A DNA stretch of 64,000 nt from Eledone cirrhosa (Eukaryota): assembly GCA_964016885.1 (NCBI GenBank), contig OZ024747.1, positions 50,096,001-50,160,000 on the forward strand, in the 5' to 3' direction. This document shows, piece by piece, positions 18,203 through 59,210 of the stretch. The notes under the pieces are model-generated. The model made no database searches. It was given only the letters and a program-made list of their open reading frames with translations, and had not been told where the DNA came from. A program made the position numbers and the translations under genes. Numbering within the stretch: the stretch's first letter is position 1; each line of letters opens with the position of its first letter.

Positions 18203-18340
18203 AGTATACTAGGGAGAGGATCAGGGGTGTATAACACTCCACTTATCCAGCAGGCAGTATAAGGTTAGCTCAATGTCTGAGGACAGAGCCGTGATATAAT
18301 AAATAACAAAGAACGCCTATAGCATATGCATATCTTTACT

Positions 18341-18386
18341 TGCTAACATTGTTTCATCCGCACTATAAGTGGGACTCATCAGAGCA
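18341..18386 (-). ncRNA. Minimal type I hammerhead ribozyme motif (GUU site)
   Basis: Minus strand: tgct CTGATGA gtcccact tat agtgcggat GAAA c aat gtt agca; stem I is 4 bp. Confidence 0.65.
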
Positions 18387-19093
18387 TAAAGGTTAATTAC
18401 ATACCATACAAGCAATAACAAATCCAAGACATTGAAGAATGAAAAATAATAATAGACGATAAAGGATATTAAGGAAGTAAAAGTAAAAATAAAAATAGGA
18501 ATAAAAAAAAAAAAAAAAAAAAAAAAAATAAGATAATAAAATAAACAATGAAAAATAAGGGGTGCTATCAGTCACAGTTGGGCGGGGTGCTGTCAACATA
18601 TAGTTACATACAAGCATACACATGGATAAGAGAACAGACAAGAGTAGATAAGATAGATAGGATTAGGTAAGAGTAGGTAAAAAATAGGTGAAAAACAGAC
18701 TTATAATATATATAAGAAAATATAAAGAAATACATAACAAACTTACATATAAAATATAAAATATACAGATAATAGTGATACAGGGTAAGGAATGAGATAA
18801 AATAATATAAAATTAAAATTAAAATTAAAATTATATAAAATAGAACATAATATAATATAATCATAAAATAAGATAAAATAAGATAAAATAAGGTAAACTA
18901 AAATAAAATAAAATAGACTAAATTAAAATAATATAATATAAGATATAATTAAATGTAATTAAATAAAATAAATGAATAAATAAATAAATAAAGTTAAATA
19001 AATAAATAAAATTAAAATTAAAATTAAAATTAAATTTAAATAAATAAATAAATAAATATATGTGTATATGTATATATATATATACATATACAC

Positions 19094-19741: not shown

Positions 19742-20086
19742 GAGGCACATGGCTTAGTGGTTAGAGCATTGGCCTTGCAATCGAAAGGTTGTGAGTTCAA
19801 TTCTCAGACCGGGTGATGTGTTGTTTCCTTGAGCAAGAGACTTTATTTCACATTGCTCCAGTTTACTCAGCTGTAGAAATGAGATGATAAGGACTGGGGT
19901 CCCTATCACATCCACTGTAAAGTGGTCGTGGAGGTGCCACGGCAAAAAAGCACCTAGCACTCACTGTAAATGAGGTTGGTGTTAGGAAGGGCATCCAGCT
20001 GTAGAAATCAAGCCAGAATCAGTTCCCGTCCCACCCTTGCAAGCAGGTAAAAAGCGGACGTAAAATGAAATGAATGAAATGATGAT
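19741..20086 (+). mobile_element. Full-length tRNA-head CORE-type SINE (family A)
   Basis: A box tggcttagtgg, B box gagttcaattc, CORE-like gtgttgtttccttgagcaag...cagtttactcagctgtagaaatgag, RTE-derived 3' tail, (tga)n end. Confidence 0.88.
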
Positions 20087-20298
20087 ATAATGTTTTTTGT
20101 TTTTTTTTTCAAATCCACTGTCAATAAAGACACCAGGACTTTTTCATTCTGATGAATGAAAACAATTTTGGTTACTTTCAAGAAACCACTGGTAAATGAA
20201 ATAATTATCTTATGTTGTTTATTACATAACAAATAAGTTCTGTAATTCACATAGAGCACTCTTTTTTCCTGGACTCTTTTTTCCGACGGAATTACTTC

Positions 20299-24056: not shown

Positions 24057-24296
24057 TTGAATTAGTATGGTATAGACAAGTACATATGTTGTTTAGGTGT
24101 ATAATATTGTCAATACTCTGATATGCCCAGTTCCTTGTTTGGTTGTTAATTCACTGAGGAACTGGAGTCATATGAATTCATATGACTCCAGTTCCTCAGT
24201 GAATTAACAACCAAACAAGGAACTGGGCATATCAGAATATTGACAATATTATACACCTAAACAACATATGTACTTGTCTATACCATACTAATTCAA

Positions 24297-29872: not shown

Positions 29873-30006
29873 ATATATATGGATGTATATATAATGTATT
29901 TTGCAATACACTTTATGCTTAATTAAAAGCATTTTGAAAACCGTATGCTATTGTTTTAGAGTAGTGACAAATTCACTTACTTTAATCTCAGCAAACAGGG
30001 GAGATA

Positions 30007-30051
30007 AGCCGACAAGACCTTGTTTCGCATTTATTGATGCTTATCAAGGCT
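30007..30051 (-). ncRNA. Hammerhead ribozyme, U3-A8 core variant (GUC site)
   Basis: agcc TTGATAA gcat caataa atgc GAAA caaggtcttg TC ggct. Confidence 0.75.
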
Positions 30052-30266
30052 AACTACTCCCTCCTGTCTGCCGAGATCACTGATGTTATATTCTTATAGA
30101 ATTCTAGTAAATAATCAGGAACTGATTATACAGAGCGGTTGTTGGTCAGGCAGAAATTAAAAATTAGAATTGGAGCTCTGAAATAGCAATATATATATGG
30201 ATGTATATATAATGTATTTTGCAATACACTTTATGCTTAATTAAAAGCAGACAGGAGGGAATAGTT

Positions 30267-30311
30267 AGCCTTGATAAGCATCAATAAATGCGAAACAAGG
30301 TCTTGTTGGCT
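30267..30311 (+). ncRNA. Hammerhead ribozyme, U3-A8 core variant (GUU site)
   Basis: Inverted copy of 30007-30051 with C17 changed to U. Confidence 0.68.
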
Positions 30312-30462
30312 TATCTCCCCTGTTTGCTGAGATTAAAGTGAATTTGTCACTACTCTAAAACAATAGCATACGGTCTTCAAAATGCTTTTAATTAAGCATA
30401 AAGTGTATTGCAAAATACATTATATATACATCCATATATATATTGCTATTTCAGAGCTCCAA

Positions 30463-30507
<45 letters not shown>

Positions 30508-36886: not shown

Positions 36887-37462
36887 CATATATATATAAA
36901 TATATATATACATATATAAATATATATATAAATATATATTTCAGTTTAGTAGTCAGTTACAAATATTAAGCTCTAAGAAAATACTTCTGAGCATTACATT
37001 ATAGTTTCTATAATATAAATATATATATACATATATATATATACATATATATATATACATATACACACACACACACGTGTGTGTGTGCGCACTGAAACAC
37101 ATACATAAACATACATTTAGATACATACATACATGCATGGACACACACATGCACATATTATGGCAGGCATGAAGCATAGAAGACAAATATATATTTAGAG
37201 AGGGGGCTGAGCATACATTAGGGGGTTGCACTAGCTGTGGTGTTTAGTTCTCACTGTCAGTGTGGATTCTGTGTGGGGGTGAAATGAGTATATTTGTGCC
37301 ATGCAGTATTGTTGCACCCAGATCTAACCGAGGTACATAGCAGAAGAGTGGCTGGGTGGATGGAGCTGTTGTGTCCAGCTTGATTGTTTTGTTGGACTCC
37401 ATCTCTTATGGCCAGTCGCGGTCACCTGACTCCTCGACGACCGATTAATAGATTGAAAAATC

Positions 37463-37581
37463 ATGTTGGCCAAACTACAGAGTGTGGTCAAGGGGGGCGT
37501 TGGGGTTGGGGGTGGAGGTGGGGACGGCGTGACTGGAGGAAGAGGAAGAGAAAGAAGAGGTGGCAGAGTTGGGGGAGTTAA

Positions 37582-37616
<35 letters not shown>

Positions 37617-39200
37617 ATAACAACGGAGGTGGTGGTGGTGGTGGTGGTGTCATTGGAAAAGGTGGTGGCAGTAAGGGTGATAGTGGCAATAGTGGTTGTA
37701 GAGTTATGGACATAGAAGACCTAAGCAGAGAGGCTGGTATCAGTGGTGTTGTTGATAGTGGTGTTGATGATGACATTACAGATGCCCAGAAGAGAAACGC
37801 CCATGCTAATCATCACGCTGGCCATAATGTCCACCACAATGTTAGTATCGGTCATCTCGGTAATGTTCATGGTGACAATGAAGATGACAACGAAAACAAC
37901 AGCATTTACAACATCAACAACAACAAGAACAAGAAAGACAGCAGCATCACTACCAACAATAACAACAACAGCATCACTGACCATGATATTAGCAATGACT
38001 ACAGTATAGGAAGTAGTAGTTATGGTGAGAGCAACTATAATAGTGTCCGTAGCAGCAACACCTATAATAGTAGTAGCAATAGTAATAGTAGTAGTATTAT
38101 TAGTGGTAGTGGTAGTATCAGTATTAGTGGTAGTAGTAGTAGTAGTAGTAGTATAAAGAAGAAAAGCAATAGCAATAACAGTGATAGTTACACCAACTAT
38201 AGCATGTGCCAAGATGTCGAACATTTGGAAAATTTGTCAGATATTTCTCTAGACAGTTGTATTATGGAAGTAGTGCGCACAAAATCAGCTTCAGAAAGGT
38301 GTCCTACACCTTTGACACGGACACCAACACGGACACCAACACGGACACCAACACGAACACCAACACGGACACCAACACGAACACCAACACGGACACGAAC
38401 ACCAACACCAACACCAACACCAACAACAGGTACAACTAAACCTATTATCACTACCACCACAGAAACAACTACAACTTCTACTACTATTAATACTGCTACT
38501 ACTACTACAACTATTACAATTACTTCTAATAATAATAATGATAATAATAATGATATTAGTACTATCACAAGAGTTAGAAAGTTTACATGTCACAGCATTG
38601 ACAGCAGTACTTGCAGTAACAGCAGCTGCAGCAGCTGTAGTTGTAATATGACTAACAGCTGTTGCAACAACCAGTTGCAACCGATGGAGGCAGAAGAAGT
38701 TTCTTTCAACAGTCAAAGTAACAGCTACAACAATAACAAGTGCTACAACAACAACAGCAAGATTGTTCAGAGACAACTACCGCAAGTTAAGATCAAAGTC
38801 GAGGCTCCCAGCAAAGAACTCGACAATAAAAACAGTAGCGGTGGCGGTGAAGGAACCAGAAAGACTCTTAACCAGGCTGAAATCCTCAAAGACCTTGATC
38901 CCTCGTTAGTCACAGCCAATTCTAAAGCTTCAACATTGCCACAGAGCACAGCAACTGCAATAGTTGCAGCTGCTGCACGTAGGACTCAGTCATACAACCA
39001 GAAAACTATGCAGTCAACCATGAAACCACCTGAGAGGCGTGTGACAGCATTTGAGAGGATCTCAACAGACCTAGAGTCAAATCCTAAACTCATCCGAGAG
39101 CTTTCACTTGGAAAGAGGATTGGTTTCTATCGGATCAGAGGAGAATTGGGCAGTGGTAATTTTTCATCAGTGAAGCTTGGCATACATACATTGGTAAAAG
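37463..39200 (+). CDS. NIM1K: NIM1-like Ser/Thr kinase, coding exon 1 (start codon uncertain)
   Basis: ELSLGKRIGFYRIRGELGSGNFSSVKLGIHTLVK (Gly loop); donor AG|GTAAGT at 39200/39201, phase 1. Confidence 0.85.
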
Positions 39201-39495
39201 GTAAGTTCTGCAATATCTACCTACCTCCCTCCCTGTCTCTCTGTCTCTCTGTCTATCTGCCTGTCTCTCTGTCTCTCTGTATGACTGTCTGTTTATTTGT
39301 CTGTCTGTATGTCTTTATGGTTGTCTCCCTATCTGTCTCTTTGCCCACGTGCCTGTCAGCCATCTGTCTGCCTTCTATTTACCTATCTGTCTGCCTTCTA
39401 TTTACCTATCTGTCTGCCTTCTATTTACCTATCTGTCTACCTGTCTGTCTATTTGTCTATCTGTCTGTCTGCTACCTATTTCTCAATCATTATCA

Positions 39496-39684
39496 GGCGG
39501 TGGATTGGCAGTATCGGTAGAGGGTTGGACGCCATGCTTTCCAGCATAGTTACGTCCCTTTACGATCTGAGTTCAAATCCCGCCGAGGTTGACTTTGCCT
39601 TTCATCCGTACAGGGTCGATAAAATAAAGTACCAGTAATGCACTGGGTAATTGCTGGCCTTGTGCCTAAAGTAGAAACAATTAT
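39496..39684 (+). mobile_element. Family B SINE (intron 1)
   Basis: Full head ggcggtggattggcagtatcgg through aacaatt. Confidence 0.88.
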
Positions 39685-41209
39685 CTGGGGTCAATAAAAT
39701 AAAGTACCAGTTATGTCAAGGGTTGATGTAATCAACTTTCCCCTTCTCTCAAATTGCTGGGTTTGTGCATAAATTAGAAATCATCATTGCTATAGATCAT
39801 ATGAAGTGTTGTGAGGTTATGATAGTATAACTTACTAGAATTTTTATCAACAGGCTGATGCGTATTTATATGTGTGTGCATGTGTATATATGCATATGCA
39901 TACATCTATATGTATGAGTATATAAATATAAATGTGCAAACACAGACACATTTACAAAAATACACACTCAGACATACATTCACTCAAACACACACTTACA
40001 TTCACACAAACACACTCATACACAGCATAGCAAATGGAACACCAGCCACTGTTTTGCTATAGTTGTTTCACCATCCCCTTCCTTCTTTTTACACACACAC
40101 ACATTGAGTGAAGGAAGGATGGACGGAAGATGCTCAAATTTATATATAGATATAAATTTATATATAGATATATAGATATATAGAAAGTGTTGTAATGTAT
40201 GTGGTTATGATAGTATAGTTTATAGTGTTGTGAGGTATGTGGTTATGGTAGTTTTGGGAAAGCTGGTACCATGCAAATTAGAAAGATAATTTTCAGAAGA
40301 CAGATAATGGACTATGATGTTAGTGCCAAGTTGGCTCTATTACTTTTGGCAGTATTAGTGGAGCGTCAGTCAACATATTTTATGGCATAGAGTTGTTTAA
40401 TATACTGGGGTGGATTTAATCAGCTTTCCTCTTCCCCAAAATTGATGGCCTTGTGCCAATATTAGACCAATATTAGAGTGGACTGAGGACTGCCATTTTC
40501 CTTTTCTGTCAGACGCTCAACAGCTTTTTCAAGTTCTACTTGAAGAGAATGGTGAAAGTGAAGAGAAAAACATCCTCTTCTCCAGTGAATTATATAAAGC
40601 TGGTCAACTGTGGTGAAAACGGTGATAATGCATGGTTGACCTCACAACATAAACTGGACAACTGACGTAAATATGGTGACAGTGCATAGTTCACCTCACA
40701 ACATAAGCTGGTCAGAGAAGGAAAAATCAGAAGAGGTTATTTACTCATGGTGATGAAGGGGTCAGTGGAATTCCTTGATTGTCGGAAGTTTTCCTGTTTC
40801 AGGAGGAGTGTTTATCATCATCAGCATCATCTATACTATGTATACCTCTTTGTTCCTGATCTGTCTCATCCAATTCTTATGTAAATCCCAACACTTTATG
40901 TAACTAATCTTTGTTATGTCTTTCTAATTCAGTGCACTTGGGGGTAAATAAATCATCATCATCATCATCATCATTATTATTATTATTATTATGGATTGGC
41001 AGTATCGGAAGAGGGTCGGATGCCATGCTTTGCAGCAAAGAGTTACGGCCCTTTGTGATGCGAGTTCAAATCCTGCCGAGGTTAACTTTGCCTTTCATCC
41101 TTACGGGGGTCGTCGATAAAATAAAGTACCAGTCATGCACTGGGGTCGATTTAATTGACTTCCCCCTCCCCCAAATTGCTGGCCTTGTGCCTATATAAGA
41201 AACCATTAT

Positions 41210-41500
41210 TTGTAACACTTTTGTTCTGGCAGATATTATACAAATACTATACGAAAAGAGCAAGGCATAACCAATGGCCAAATGTCTTTTGGATGAATCC
41301 TTCTCCTTCCACTTTCCAGCACCCTCTTTAGAATTCTTGCTGTTCCTAGCAAGGCTATTTTCTGCAACAATCCCGTCCTGATGGTAATTCCTAACTTCTC
41401 AAGCCATACATCCAACCTTATATTAACTGCTCTCAGTGTAGCAACCACAATTGGTACCACTTCTACATGCTTGATTCTTCACAGTTGCCTGATTTCTCTT
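41210..41500 (-). mobile_element. R4/Dong-like LINE 3' end, abutting a family B SINE (40993-41210)
   Basis: VPIVVATL...LLQKIALLGTARILKRVLE. Confidence 0.85.
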
Positions 41501-41645
41501 TTACTTATTATTATTATTGGCAGTATCGGTAGAGGGTCGGACGCCATGCTTTGATGTATAGAGTTACGTCCCTTCAGTAAGTGACGGGGATTGATTTAAT
41601 TGACTTTCCCCTCCCCTTCAAACTCCTGGCCTTCTGCCTTTAGTA

Positions 41646-42030
41646 AGGCGGTGGATTGGCAGTATCGGTAGAGGGTCAGATGCCATGCTTTGCAGCAAAG
41701 AGTTACGGCCCTTTATGGTCTGAGTTCAAATCCCGCCGAGGTTAACTTTGCCTTTCATCCTTACGGGGTCGATAAAATAAAGTACCAGTAATGTACTGGG
41801 TAATTGCTGGCCTTGTGCCTAAGATAGAAACAATTATTATTGGCAGTATTGGTAGAGGGTCGGACGCCATCTTTGACGCATAGAGTTACGGCCCTTTCCA
41901 TTCTGAGTTCAAATCCCACCGAGGTTAACTTTGCCTTTCATCCTTATGGGGTCGATAAAATAAAGTACCAGTAATGCACTGGGTAATTGCTGGCCTTGTG
42001 CCAAACGTAGAAACAATTATTATTATTATT
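41646..42030 (+). mobile_element. Two tandem family B SINEs
   Basis: Copies at 41646-41840 and 41841-42030 joined through attattat. Confidence 0.9.
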
Positions 42031-42034
42031 ATTT

Positions 42035-42240
42035 TTTACTTGATGTTATTCAACCAGAATAATTTCCAGCCTCAGATATTCAGGATGTAATGAAGGGTCC
42101 TTGCCGTTCCAAGTAGGCATGCCTTTTGAAAAGTTCCAAAATAGTGGGGTGGGAAGATGGTCTTTAGCCAGCCTTGGTATCTCTTCAAGATAGTACCTAG
42201 TGCTCCCATGTCAATCGGGACAACCTTGATCTTATGACAG
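42035..42240 (-). mobile_element. R4/Dong-like LINE 3' end
   Basis: FQKACLLGTARTLHYILNI-stop. Confidence 0.8.
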
Positions 42241-42259
42241 TTTCAAATCCTTTTCATCT

Positions 42260-43520
42260 ACTACTGCCTGATCATTGTGCCTTGTCTTAAGCCCCATCTG
42301 ACTGCACAGGGGCATTTGCTCTTTCTCTTTTTGTGGAAGGGATGCATTCCGATGGTCAGGTGGTTCATCTTCTGTTAACACCTTCTGTGTGGAGGACTGG
42401 GCAGGCTGTGGCTGATGATGCACAGACATGCGCTGAGGTTGCAACATCTCTATCTCTTCCTTGAACAGGTGTGGTCACATCTCACTAAGCACATTTTTCC
42501 ACAGCTCATCTCTTTGACGGAGCAGCAATCCTGGGTCAAGCAGAGACTAAGAGGGAGCACTTGGAAACTGGAATGTCTTCAAGCGCTCACTGCCCTTTGC
42601 CAACCAGGCACTGCGATCAGTGGAAACTCCACCTTGGTATTCTTTAGAGGGTTAGTGGAGGGCAAAGACAACGATGTTCCTGGGGAAACTCTGGGTGTTG
42701 ATGAAACTAGCTCTTCTCTTCAGGAGGACTTTTGGTCCAGGGCCAATGGATAACTTCCAGAAATCCCAGGCCTGGCAGTGTTACCGGGGAGTATTGCCAG
42801 TTCGAGATAAACGTTACAGGCATGGTAGTGCCATTAGCCAGACCTTTCCGAGATGTGCATTGGGCAACGAGACCGTCCTGCATGCACTTGTCCAGTGTCC
42901 GAGCATTGCTGACTCATGGGTTTATGTTGAACATCTGCGGTCGCATGTAGGAGGGATCCAGCTTTCAGCTGAGTCCATCATGAAGATTGCCCTGCTGCCC
43001 TCCTTTAACCAGGGAGGGCAGGCAGCTTTTATCTGCCTGGTGGCCATGGTAAAAGAGGTTGTATGATTGACATGTCTGGAAGGGTTGAAGACGGGCACTT
43101 TCCTCTTTGGTGACACTCATTAACTTTTTCAGGTTTCACCTAAAAAGGAAAATCAGGGTGGAGAGGGAAGTGCTGCCTTGCAGCCAGTTTATTGAAAGGT
43201 GGGTGAGAGAGGCAAGAATGGCCCATGTGAATGGGCCTACCCTGAGCGTGTGCCATTAGTATTGTAAGAGGAAAACTGGGAGAGGGTGATTTCCCTAGTG
43301 GTCAGGGTGACTGTGGCTTTTGTTGGCTTTCTTCATGAATAACCCTTGGTGGTCTGCCACCTATTAGGGATTATTCCTTTGTTTCCATTTCTTTGTCACA
43401 TCTTTTGTTTTTGTTTTCCCTTTTTTCATGCAGTAACCCATATTTGTATCGTCATGTACTGTCCTGTGCTGTTCTTAATGTATTTTTTGAAAACCCTTTG
43501 AGGTTAATAAAGAAATTATT
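42260..43520 (+). mobile_element. L1/Tx1-like LINE 3' fragment (zf-RVT region and 3' UTR)
   Basis: AWQCYRGVLPVRDK...RCALGNETVLHALVQCP; T-rich UTR ending aataaa; homologous to 47400-48420. Confidence 0.8.
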
Positions 43521-43543
43521 ATTATTTGTTATGTTTTTTACAG

Positions 43544-43812
43544 AAAAAGTTGCAATAAAAATCTTGGATAAAACTCGTCTTGATTTGAAAACTCAGCGAC
43601 TGTTGTCCAGAGAGATTGAAATTATGGAACATCTGCGGCATCCTAATATTATACGGTTATACGAGGTGGTGGAAACACTAGTCAAAGTACATTTAATCAT
43701 GGAATATGCCCCAGGAGGGGAACTTTTTACCAAATTATCAAATGAGGGCCGACTGACAGAACCTGAAGCAAAATTTATCTTTGCACAGATTCTTTCTGCT
43801 GTTGAACATATG
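43544..43812 (+). CDS. NIM1K: NIM1-like kinase coding exon 2
   Basis: ttttttacag| acceptor; EKVAIKILDKTRLDLKTQRLLSREI...HPNIIRLYEVVET...MEYAPGGELF...AVEHM; |gtaagt donor; 269 nt restores phase 0. Confidence 0.96.
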
Positions 43813-44385
43813 GTAAGTTCTAGTTCTGTGAAGATGTGTAGCCTAGTGATTAAGGTATTGGGCTCATGATAATAAAGTCATGGGTTCTATTCATGGATTA
43901 GGCAGCAGGTTGTATGATGGTTGGCTGAAAAGTTCATAGGCTGACCAAGATACTCTCATAGAATGACCAAATGAAGTGTCCTTTTCAGCATAGTCCCTGG
44001 AAAGAAACAATGATAATAAGAGTTGCATCCAAGATTTCACAGCTTTAACATCACTCCTTCATAGTCAGCCTATGAGAAATTTTCTGTGAGATGCATCATA
44101 GCTCCCATCCTTTCCATCCTTTCCATCACTATTTTATTACTTTTTCTTCTCTTTTTTCTCTCTAATAGAAAAACCAATAGGAACATTATTTTCTTGGTTT
44201 GAACTCAAAATTAGCTTATTTCTCTCCCACTCGTCTTTTTTCTTCCCTAATTTATTACTCTTCTCTCTTCTCTCTCTAATGGAAAGGCCAATGAAGACAT
44301 CCTTGCTCCAATATTATGACTAGCTCCTTCTTCCCCACTTCTTCTCTTCATTAACTTATCCTCATTTTTCTTCTCTTTCTTCCAG

Positions 44386-45126
44386 CACAGCCATTATATC
44401 ATCCATCGAGATTTAAAAGCCGAGAATGTTTTTTATGCTGCTCCATTCTTTGTCAAAGTTGGTGACTTTGGTTTCAGCACAATCTGTCGCTCAGAACAGC
44501 AAGAATTAAATACCTTCTGTGGTTCACCACCTTATGCAGCACCAGAACTCTTCAGGGATGATATCTATTATGGAACATTTGTTGATATATGGGCACTGGG
44601 TATTCTACTTTATTTTATGGTCACTGGTTCTATGCCATTCCGGGCAGAGAATGTTACAAGAATGAAAAAATGCATTCTCAATGGAATGTATGCAATTCCA
44701 ATGTTTGTCTCGGATAGTTGTCATTTTTTAATCCGAGGAATATTGCGATCCCTACCACAGGATAGATTTACTATTGAAGAAATTAAGAATAGTGAGTGGT
44801 TATCGGGGGAAAATTATCCAAAAGCTTTGCCGCCATACAGACTTTGCCCCACCGTTAACCTCACAGAATTAAAAGCAGAGGAACAAGAGACAATTAAGAT
44901 ACTTTGCCAACTTGGGATTACCCAAGATCATCTGAAGGAAGCGATCCGCAAGAACACAAGGAACTCTATAATTGGTGCTTACCGTATTATATTGCATCGA
45001 ATACAGAAGAAGAACCAGGATAAAGATATTTATGCCATTGCAGAGTTTTCTTCCAGATTATTTAAACAACAGGACAATAAGAAGAAAATGAGATCTCATA
45101 TATCAAAACTTTGTACAATTCTTTAG
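44386..45126 (+). CDS. NIM1K: NIM1-like kinase coding exon 3 (terminal)
   Basis: Polypyrimidine tract and cag|; [44 protein letters not shown]; ends SKLCTIL-TAG. Confidence 0.96.
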
Positions 45127-58821: not shown

Positions 58822-58884
<63 letters not shown>

Positions 58885-58887
<3 letters not shown>

Positions 58888-59210
58888 CTATTGGTGCTCT
58901 GAAATAGCGATGTATATAAGAATGTACGTATAGTATGTTTAATAATATACTGTATGTTTTTCATTCGCTATGAATTTTAAGGTAGTGACTCACGTCACAT
59001 ATCTAGTCTCGGCAAAAGCAAAGGGGAGTAATCGACAGTGACCGTTTCTCACTTGTAAGTGGTTGTCAAGACTACATACCTCTTCGCTTATGCCGAAAGC
59101 TATAGAAGTTGGATTCTTATAGGATTCTAGTTATGTTTATGAGCTATTGAAGCTCATTTGCATACAGAGTGGTTTCCGGCCCAGCATAAATTAGAAATTA
59201 GTATTGGTGC
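58885..59210 (-). mobile_element. ~313-bp hammerhead-bearing element related to 29873-30469
   Basis: tattggtgc repeats 313 bp apart; shares ttggNgctctgaaatagc, gtagtgac, ttcttatagRattctag and tacagag with the 30-kb element; abuts (TA)n. Confidence 0.7.
59028..59075 (-). ncRNA. Hammerhead ribozyme, U3-A8 core variant (GUC site)
   Basis: gtagtc TTGACAA ccact taca agtga GAAA cgg tca ctg TC gattac; first pair of stem II mismatched. Confidence 0.68.

Follow-up and report, generated by a model that had tools for sequence, protein, structure and literature searches.

A U3-A8 hammerhead repeat with host-type snRNA promoter boxes and Penelope-type ends in Eledone cirrhosa: a probable non-LTR retrozyme

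Animal genomes harbour non-coding repeats known as metazoan non-LTR retrozymes, in which monomers of ~170–400 nt and low GC content are arranged in tandem, with one type I hammerhead in each unit (Cervera & de la Pena 2020, PMC7229834). The text of that study proposes mobilisation by Penelope elements, reports for animal retrozymes that unit RNAs occur as circles, that RtcB ligates them and that dimers cleave, describes salamander hammerheads that act as dimers, and mentions neither octopus nor other cephalopods. A Penelope origin of retrozymes has since been argued in a preprint (bioRxiv 10.64898/2026.07.22.740005) whose available part is silent on both promoter and octopus. Two further systems combine a hammerhead with a promoter. 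The newt satellite 2 is a tandem hammerhead repeat with an internal snRNA-type promoter that is transcribed by RNA polymerase II (Coats et al. 1994, as cited in PMC2220036 and PMC6765202), and schistosome SINE-like repeats carry a promoter and a hammerhead in every unit, are transcribed by polymerase III from an internal promoter and need tandem copies to propagate (PMC6765202). Finally, the hammerheads of Penelope pseudo-LTRs, which include ~1,300 matches with a U3-A8 core in Schistosoma, are minimal (helix I 4–5 bp, helix II 7–8 bp), mostly single and tied to ORF-bearing elements (PMC4209133). The family described below bears on the transcription of animal retrozymes, through promoter boxes and a predicted start site, and on the enzyme behind their mobility, through Penelope-type ends; both give predictions that can be tested.

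The window, a 64,000-nt stretch of the E. cirrhosa genome (assembly size 3.0 Gb, 1,796 contigs), contains two copies of a repeat, A and C, whose hammerheads the original prediction had picked out together with their stems, a TATA-like box and a 3' hairpin. All of these are present and all lie on the minus strand; next to copy A is an inverted partner on the plus strand.

29873–30249, minus strand: copy A, 1.2 monomers with a 318-bp period; its short 3' end lies beside a (CAT)n run
30247–30469, plus strand: inverted, 5'-truncated partner of A with its own U3-A8 core, N17 = U, and a long 3' end (tail) in (TA)n
30442–30469, plus strand: tail of the inverted partner, ~26–28 bp, at one insertion end only (Penelope signature)
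30121–30127, minus strand: AATCAGT box of A, matching the motif at -56 to -60 of host U1, U2, U4, U5 and U12 genes; 59 nt before the predicted start
30091–30098, minus strand: TATA-like box of A, starting at 30098, 29 nt after the start of AATCAG (25–31 nt in host snRNA genes) and 21 nt 5' of the stem arm
30068, minus strand: predicted transcription start of A, from host spacing
30048–30078, minus strand: 5' arm of extended stem I of A (long-stem arm 30077–30063)
29983–30010, minus strand: 3' arm of extended stem I of A (long-stem arm 29999–29985)
30011–30047, minus strand: type I hammerhead core of A, with U3 at 30047, A8 at 30042, GAAA at 30026–30023, stem II with G10.1-C11.1, near-palindromic stem III and GUC; predicted cut after C17 at 30011
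29964–29976, minus strand: small hairpin of A, 3' of the stem
58884–59210, minus strand: copy C, older subfamily, 313-bp period, ending with a tail in (TA)n
59153–59164, minus strand: TATGCAAATGAG box of C, shared without mismatch with RNase MRP and one host U6 gene, where it lies at -77/-78
59114–59121, minus strand: TATA-like box of C, starting at 59121, 43 nt after the start of the TATGCAAATGAG box
59009–59096, minus strand: hammerhead of C with extended stem I, U3 at 59069 and predicted cut after C17 at 59034; stem arms 59096–59079 and 59026–59009; C.A mismatch at 10.1:11.1

Copies A and C are 68% identical over 241 aligned columns (E 5e-10). Their monomer lengths had been described as near-equal; the 318-bp period of A stands, but the 313 bp of C reflects a private 19-bp deletion, its relatives being ~332 bp long. 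DNA searches of the genome yielded 1,734 first-look candidates with copy A as query and 1,931 with copy C, 40 of each being scored. A genome-wide pattern for the predicted U3-A8 core in its stem context found 2,522 matches, with a single match in the reversed control. A looser U3-A8 pattern that leaves out lineage A gave 1,190 matches (41 in the control) and exposed many divergent subfamilies; grouped at 80% identity, its 129 unique matches in the collected loci give 44 clusters, with L188 as at least one probable chance match.

The repeat is non-coding and present in thousands of copies, tandem and inverted, with a unit of ~316–332 bp in a superfamily reaching ~470 bp. As anticipated for a retrozyme-like family, short monomers run head to tail (periods of 316–318 bp, arrays of up to six units), each unit has one type I hammerhead, as in the metazoan retrozymes (PMC7229834), LTRs and protein-coding sequence are absent, and the copies are dispersed. 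Related subfamilies have longer monomers (~428 and ~469 bp), slightly over the ~170–400 nt retrozyme range, and an identical whole-monomer layout is retained across subfamilies with a median identity of 55%. The repeat has no ORF with reverse transcriptase (RT) and GIY-YIG endonuclease such as defines an autonomous Penelope-like element. It had been proposed that the selected unit is a structured RNA of ~100 nt. This is not supported: what replicates is the whole monomer of 316–332 nt, which is found in arrays, both tandem and inverted, whose ends are of Penelope type. Long arrays of ~428 bp (L415–L418) and 469 bp (L433–L439; G000:C1:95.66–95.68 Mb and elsewhere) are canonical-core members of the superfamily; an apparent 2.8-kb repeat (L433–438) proved to be a higher-order, six-unit period of the 469-bp array, with no ORF.

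Standard searches miss the family, as the original prediction had expected, because Rfam scores copy A at 20.4 bits (HH9), under the gathering score of 52, and returns no hammerhead match for copy C; thousands of copies escape Rfam and canonical-core descriptors. No prior description was found in the literature searched, which comprised main texts, so that the repeat might be listed in supplements, Dfam, Repbase or subscription journals. Ribozymes go unmentioned in the main text of a repeat annotation for octopus (PMC13282606), and what was available of PMC7151607 and PMC10886601 holds nothing specific to the family. The idea of an undescribed family survives to this extent, but its U3-A8 core is already published in Schistosoma Penelope hammerheads (PMC4209133). 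U3-A8 hammerhead, Penelope geometry and snRNA-type promoter each have a precedent; their combination in a mollusc-type genome appears to be new.

The hammerhead itself has a 3:8 Watson–Crick pair, GAAA, A15.1-U16.1 and a NUH site, these core letters being part of the search pattern, and three covarying helices, as expected of type I. In a structure alignment of 36 sequences (35 of the 44 cluster representatives plus the window copy, nine that were truncated, duplicate or not the element being left out), two-sided changes occur at 30 of the 32 pairs, so the predicted stem covariation is borne out. Stem I proper is 91% paired, and 78% of all cells are paired against 36–50% in slid registers, relatedness inflating the shuffle control. 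The native arms of the long stem pair at -22.0 kcal/mol against -16.4 ± 0.6 for permuted arms; when arms were swapped, however, just 10 of 44 cases paired best with their own partner. Fold z-scores are -6.8 (A) and -5.0 (C) for 131-nt regions; the complete monomer of A scores -5.4. In the inner part of stem III, 138 of 203 positions are self-complementary, compared with 49.1 ± 8.5 after shuffling (0 of 10,000 shuffles; 32 distinct inner sequences, two pattern-fixed pairs left out). A palindromic stem III is the dimer-type design known from Penelope hammerheads, and the repeat shares this design and the U3-A8 covariation with the Schistosoma Cercyon/Penelope hammerheads (PMC4209133); in lineage A, closure of a 4-bp monomer hairpin is also possible from the sequence. 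Unlike those minimal, ORF-associated ribozymes, the ones described here have a stem I of 6 bp with a long extension, a stem II of 3–4 bp, no ORF and, often, no G10.1-C11.1 pair (PMC4209133). They differ from the described metazoan retrozymes in the U3-A8 core of the active lineage and in a stem I extended to ~25 bp (PMC7229834). N17 is C in 30 of the 44 representatives and U in 14.

Pair 10.1:11.1, on which the original prediction was silent, is mismatched in copy C and most older subfamilies and unpaired in 26 of the 36 aligned sequences; G10.1-C11.1 is present in lineage A. Moreover, when the monomer of A is folded by prediction, its core pairs with stem III, an arrangement that is not catalytic. 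The lost pair and this modelled fold would both count against ribozyme activity.

It was a conserved 12-nt box 5' of the ribozyme that prompted comparison with the snRNA genes of the host. The sequence TATG(C/G)(A/T)AAT(G/T)AG is found at -77 to -79, with TATA at about -30, in three independent U6 loci, in U6atac (the best match, one of eight examined) and in RNase MRP (a single gene); 14 other U6 matches lack the box at that position and are retrocopy-like. An ATCAG-like motif occupies -56 to -60 in 14 of 14 U1, U2, U4, U5 and U12 promoters, being weaker in two, and in most of them a TATA-like motif follows 25–31 nt later. By locus, the upstream 110 bp thus fall into two promoter classes, one with the octamer-containing box (L232–L234, L291, L311) and one with ATCAG and a TATA-like motif (L252–L254, L299–L304, L313–L314, L323–L329, L333); the RNase P RNA gene (L312) has the ATCAG box, yet ends in a T run. 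The two classes could be useful for small-RNA expression vectors in this animal group.

Both kinds of element recur in the repeat at set positions. The 44 U3-A8 representatives were chosen without reference to promoter motifs and many are 5'-truncated; over 340 positions, the best U6-type score falls at -93 to -97 from U3 in 12 of them and the best ATCAG-plus-TATA score at -77 to -82 in 11, with fewer than one expected in either case. Genome-wide, the box stands 80–86 nt 5' of a U3-A8 core at 416 places (control 8) against 49 at 60–66 nt, and at the equal distance before a canonical C3-G8 core at 543 (control 2). In 30 of 40 rows TATA starts 42–47 nt after the box, where shuffles give 2.4 rows on average and 9 at most, and CAG lies at offset 18–20 in 24 of 40. 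In lineage A a 12-bp deletion removes the U6-type box, and AATCAGT is retained 29 nt before TATA; the composite promoter score of 10.2 bits is modest, 47 of ~128,000 window sites scoring as high. In copy C it is the ATCAG box that is degenerate. Spacing in lineage A matches that of host U1/U5-type promoters, and box-to-TATA spacing elsewhere is about 3–5 nt shorter than the 47–49 nt of host polymerase III genes. The two boxes together were found in no host gene examined. Either box register would place the start of transcription ~21–22 nt upstream of U3, which for copy C gives a predicted start at or near 59091. The promoter-like sequence of the original prediction therefore has support beyond what could then be shown, in its match to host snRNA promoter boxes.

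The 2020 and 2026 retrozyme papers, in the parts searched, contain no promoter map, and conserved snRNA-type boxes set the present family apart from the described metazoan retrozymes (PMC7229834). A hammerhead tandem repeat with an snRNA-type promoter is shared with newt satellite 2, a vertebrate repeat; here the host promoter system is a different one, with U6-type and U1/U2-type boxes, the distinction being drawn from description rather than from sequence comparison, and dispersed Penelope-type insertions occur besides arrays (PMC2220036, PMC6765202). Like the schistosome SINE-like repeats, each unit has promoter and hammerhead, but the boxes match upstream snRNA-type promoters rather than an internal one (PMC6765202). 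An upstream region that matches the host's own snRNA promoters appears to be new. A U6-type box also precedes a degenerate hammerhead-like region in another repeat family (L447, L448, L458, L404, L424).

Might the boxes have some other purpose, as protein-binding or RNA-structure signals in a mobilised retrozyme whose RNA is made by host read-through? The octamer is a common motif (the generic octamer inside the box is enriched genome-wide, 49 versus 9), the spacing departs from that of U6 by the 3–5 nt mentioned, and the most recently active lineage lacks the U6-type box. Against this, the identity of the 12-nt box to host U6 and MRP extends beyond the octamer core and is in the sense orientation, TATA keeps its fixed distance, and lineage A, having lost one box, retains the other with TATA at U1/U5 spacing. 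We consider this explanation decidedly unlikely. A second idea, close to the original prediction, is that the product is a discrete small RNA of ~100–230 nt, transcribed by polymerase III up to a T run inside the unit, with amplification incidental. A U6-type box with TATA is the polymerase III signature in this genome, and insertions have a T5 run at their long 3' end. The promoter would be missing from such an RNA, however, yet insertions contain full monomers and multimers, their 5' ends do not cluster at the predicted start or cut site, and after the hairpin there is no clear snRNA 3' box of host type (a weak likeness only). This would be a very improbable account of the family.

A U-A swap at positions 3 and 8 of the hammerhead can preserve its activity. 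The canonical C3-G8 is a tertiary Watson–Crick pair (PMC3884650). In the lineage-A/C stem context, the genome-wide counts are 2,522 for U3-A8, none for C3-G8, 11 for C3-A8 and eight for U3-G8, and the two positions are linked as predicted. U3-A8 had also been put forward as the core of the family; it is fixed in this context, but sister subfamilies are canonical, and promoter-anchored copies number 543 with C3-G8 and 416 with U3-A8, besides 60 with C3-A8 and 82 with U3-G8 (reversed controls 2, 8, 11 and 11, respectively). Independence would lead one to expect 261 and 283 of the mismatched cores; the raw counts are not themselves independent because the copies are related. Of 60 mismatched loci read, 38 continue as a hammerhead, and they come from many subfamilies, bar the repeated units of two arrays. 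Among canonical C3-G8 loci with the box, 28 of the 30 read were kept as hammerheads, sharing the long stem, palindromic stem III and a related 3' region.

Positions 3 and 8 were masked for a maximum-likelihood tree of 53 rows chosen through matched-core patterns (the window copy, 28 C-G sequences and those 24 of the 44 U-A clusters whose 5' parts are intact). Four changes of core type are needed, at least three of them forced by strong branches, and a single U-A clade is rejected (0 of 200 bootstraps, p-AU 1.6e-10). The 3:8 pair has therefore switched between C-G and U-A in concert at least three times, which provides evolutionary evidence of selection for catalysis on genomic hammerheads, and U3-A8 is probably a selected compensatory form of the tertiary pair. 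These repeated coupled switches, and the identical promoter that also heads canonical-core copies, appear to be without precedent. More tentatively, and with rather more doubt than confidence, an ancient retrozyme superfamily may have captured a complete upstream snRNA promoter and kept it by way of ribozyme-cut circular unit RNAs (ordinary SINEs lose such a promoter on copying), its youngest and most amplified lineage then moving from a U6-type (polymerase III-like) to a U1/U5-type (polymerase II-like) promoter through a single 12-bp deletion, with the repeated concerted flips of the 3:8 pair as a natural experiment.

The ends of the insertions point to the means of mobilisation. Penelope-like elements insert as partial tandems next to which lies a truncated copy in inverted orientation, and they have a tail of 30–40 bp on one side (Craig et al., PMC8557442); the tail has been tied in vitro to two reverse-transcription start sites, and for an Anolis Penelope element ribozyme cleavage is reported to be dispensable for insertion in vitro (PMC11167929). 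The insertions mapped here are 75 loci of lineage A, 39 of them taken from the preceding searches and 36 from the U3-A8 pattern list, with two near-duplicates. A simple divergent inverted pair is present at 48 of them, and where the outer ends are divergent (51 loci), 40 loci combine a short end with a long one, 26–33 bp apart. TA-rich DNA adjoins 111 of 138 3' ends, with (TA)n as target. Partial tandems, adjacent inverted 5'-truncated copies, one-sided tails and microsatellite targets are thus all in evidence, as in Penelope pseudo-LTR hammerheads (PMC4209133), the inverted partners and one-sided tails being documented here in distinction to the described metazoan retrozymes (PMC7229834). Such ends would name the class of mobilising enzyme. 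In the same 75 loci, 5' truncation points show no peak at the predicted start or cut site (a pile at -200 is a ruler artefact); 5' ends are spread over the whole unit, a pattern that a multimeric or circular template would give, and random truncation likewise. Loci L008 and L357, on different contigs, have common inverted-junction points (-124, -150), suggestive of junction hotspots or of a copied composite.

Given this identical geometry, the copies could instead be solo or truncated pseudo-LTRs of an unsampled autonomous Penelope-like element, with RNA arising only from the parent or by read-through and with boxes that are the parent's pseudo-LTR promoter. U3-A8 is known from Schistosoma Cercyon pseudo-LTRs (PMC4209133), and the preprint derives vertebrate retrozymes from pseudo-LTRs (bioRxiv 10.64898/2026.07.22.740005). 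The arrays, however, consist of complete short monomers without coding DNA (up to six units of 316 bp, and the long 469-bp arrays), the whole-monomer layout is kept across divergent subfamilies, and no matching ORF lies upstream of 205 U3-A8 matches; neither there nor in three inspected Penelope families did an autonomous element carrying the ribozyme or the promoter come to light. We regard a pseudo-LTR origin as unlikely.

Several Penelope-like elements came to light along the way. At L092:2774–6496 (plus strand; G000:C4) there is an intact frame of 1,241 codons with RT and C-terminal GIY-YIG by eye, for which no Pfam domain was named; the family, which we take to be Neptune-like, has its own canonical hammerhead in the 3' repeat, and a related ORF-start motif has 716 matches. 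An apparent link between the tail and a Penelope ORF start (L071, L093) was traced to nested insertions into a different, canonical-core family. Two further families were considered as partners and set aside, the 3' regions of 46 of 60 loci scanned being unlike this element. A very young family (L155–L170; 95–100% protein identity among 150 matches) has, by eye, a hammerhead-like motif in its 3' repeat, 300–400 bp beyond the GIY-YIG ORF, in which position 4 is C (CCGAAGA), and a second abundant family (L125–L154) showed no hammerhead within 420 bp after the ORF in a scan.

The Penelope geometry of the insertions therefore favours a non-LTR retrozyme, and because its hammerhead motif sits behind boxes of host snRNA type the repeat is likely to be a self-transcribing, self-cutting mobile element. 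We think it probable that an snRNA-type promoter of its own drives transcription through tandem units, that the RNA is cut once in each unit and circularised, and that a Penelope RT-endonuclease reinserts it at (TA)n. This reading draws on the observed anatomy, covariation, 3:8 coupling, promoter match and insertion geometry; transcription, polymerase, cleavage, circularisation and enzyme would be as follows. Transcription would start ~21–22 nt upstream of U3 and run into the next tandem unit. In lineage A the polymerase would most likely be RNA polymerase II, because T4–T5 runs inside the unit would stop polymerase III. The ribozyme would cut after GUC, often, to judge from its structure, as a dimer through the palindromic stem III, and two cuts would release RNA of unit length with the promoter sequence inside it, so that the promoter would not be lost in copying. 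By analogy with other retrozymes, an RtcB-type ligase may circularise the unit. A Penelope RT/GIY-YIG protein would then prime at (TA)n and copy more than one unit from two start sites 26–33 nt apart, which would produce the partial tandems, the inverted partner and the one-sided tail.

In a look for RNA evidence, contigs from four of six runs showed one unit-to-unit junction, compatible with tandem DNA and with a circle alike, and no splice joint. An intron reading was dropped: A and C have a donor of GT type 3' of the stem and, in the tail, an AG acceptor, but these sites are not kept in distant subfamilies.

In a whole-window Rfam scan, the 150 of 156 matches listed are weak and microsatellite-driven, of miRNA type and similar. 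A long near-perfect inverted repeat at 24089–24262 scores 86 bits against a plant miRNA model, under its cut-off. Exons of a protein kinase, NIM1/MARK-like by eye and with a long low-complexity first exon, lie at 37457–45123 on the plus strand. Two canonical-core hammerhead-like motifs belong to other repeat families, one at 18290–18460 (minus strand) and one at 20080–20260 (plus strand), the second of which recurs in another collected locus (L017).
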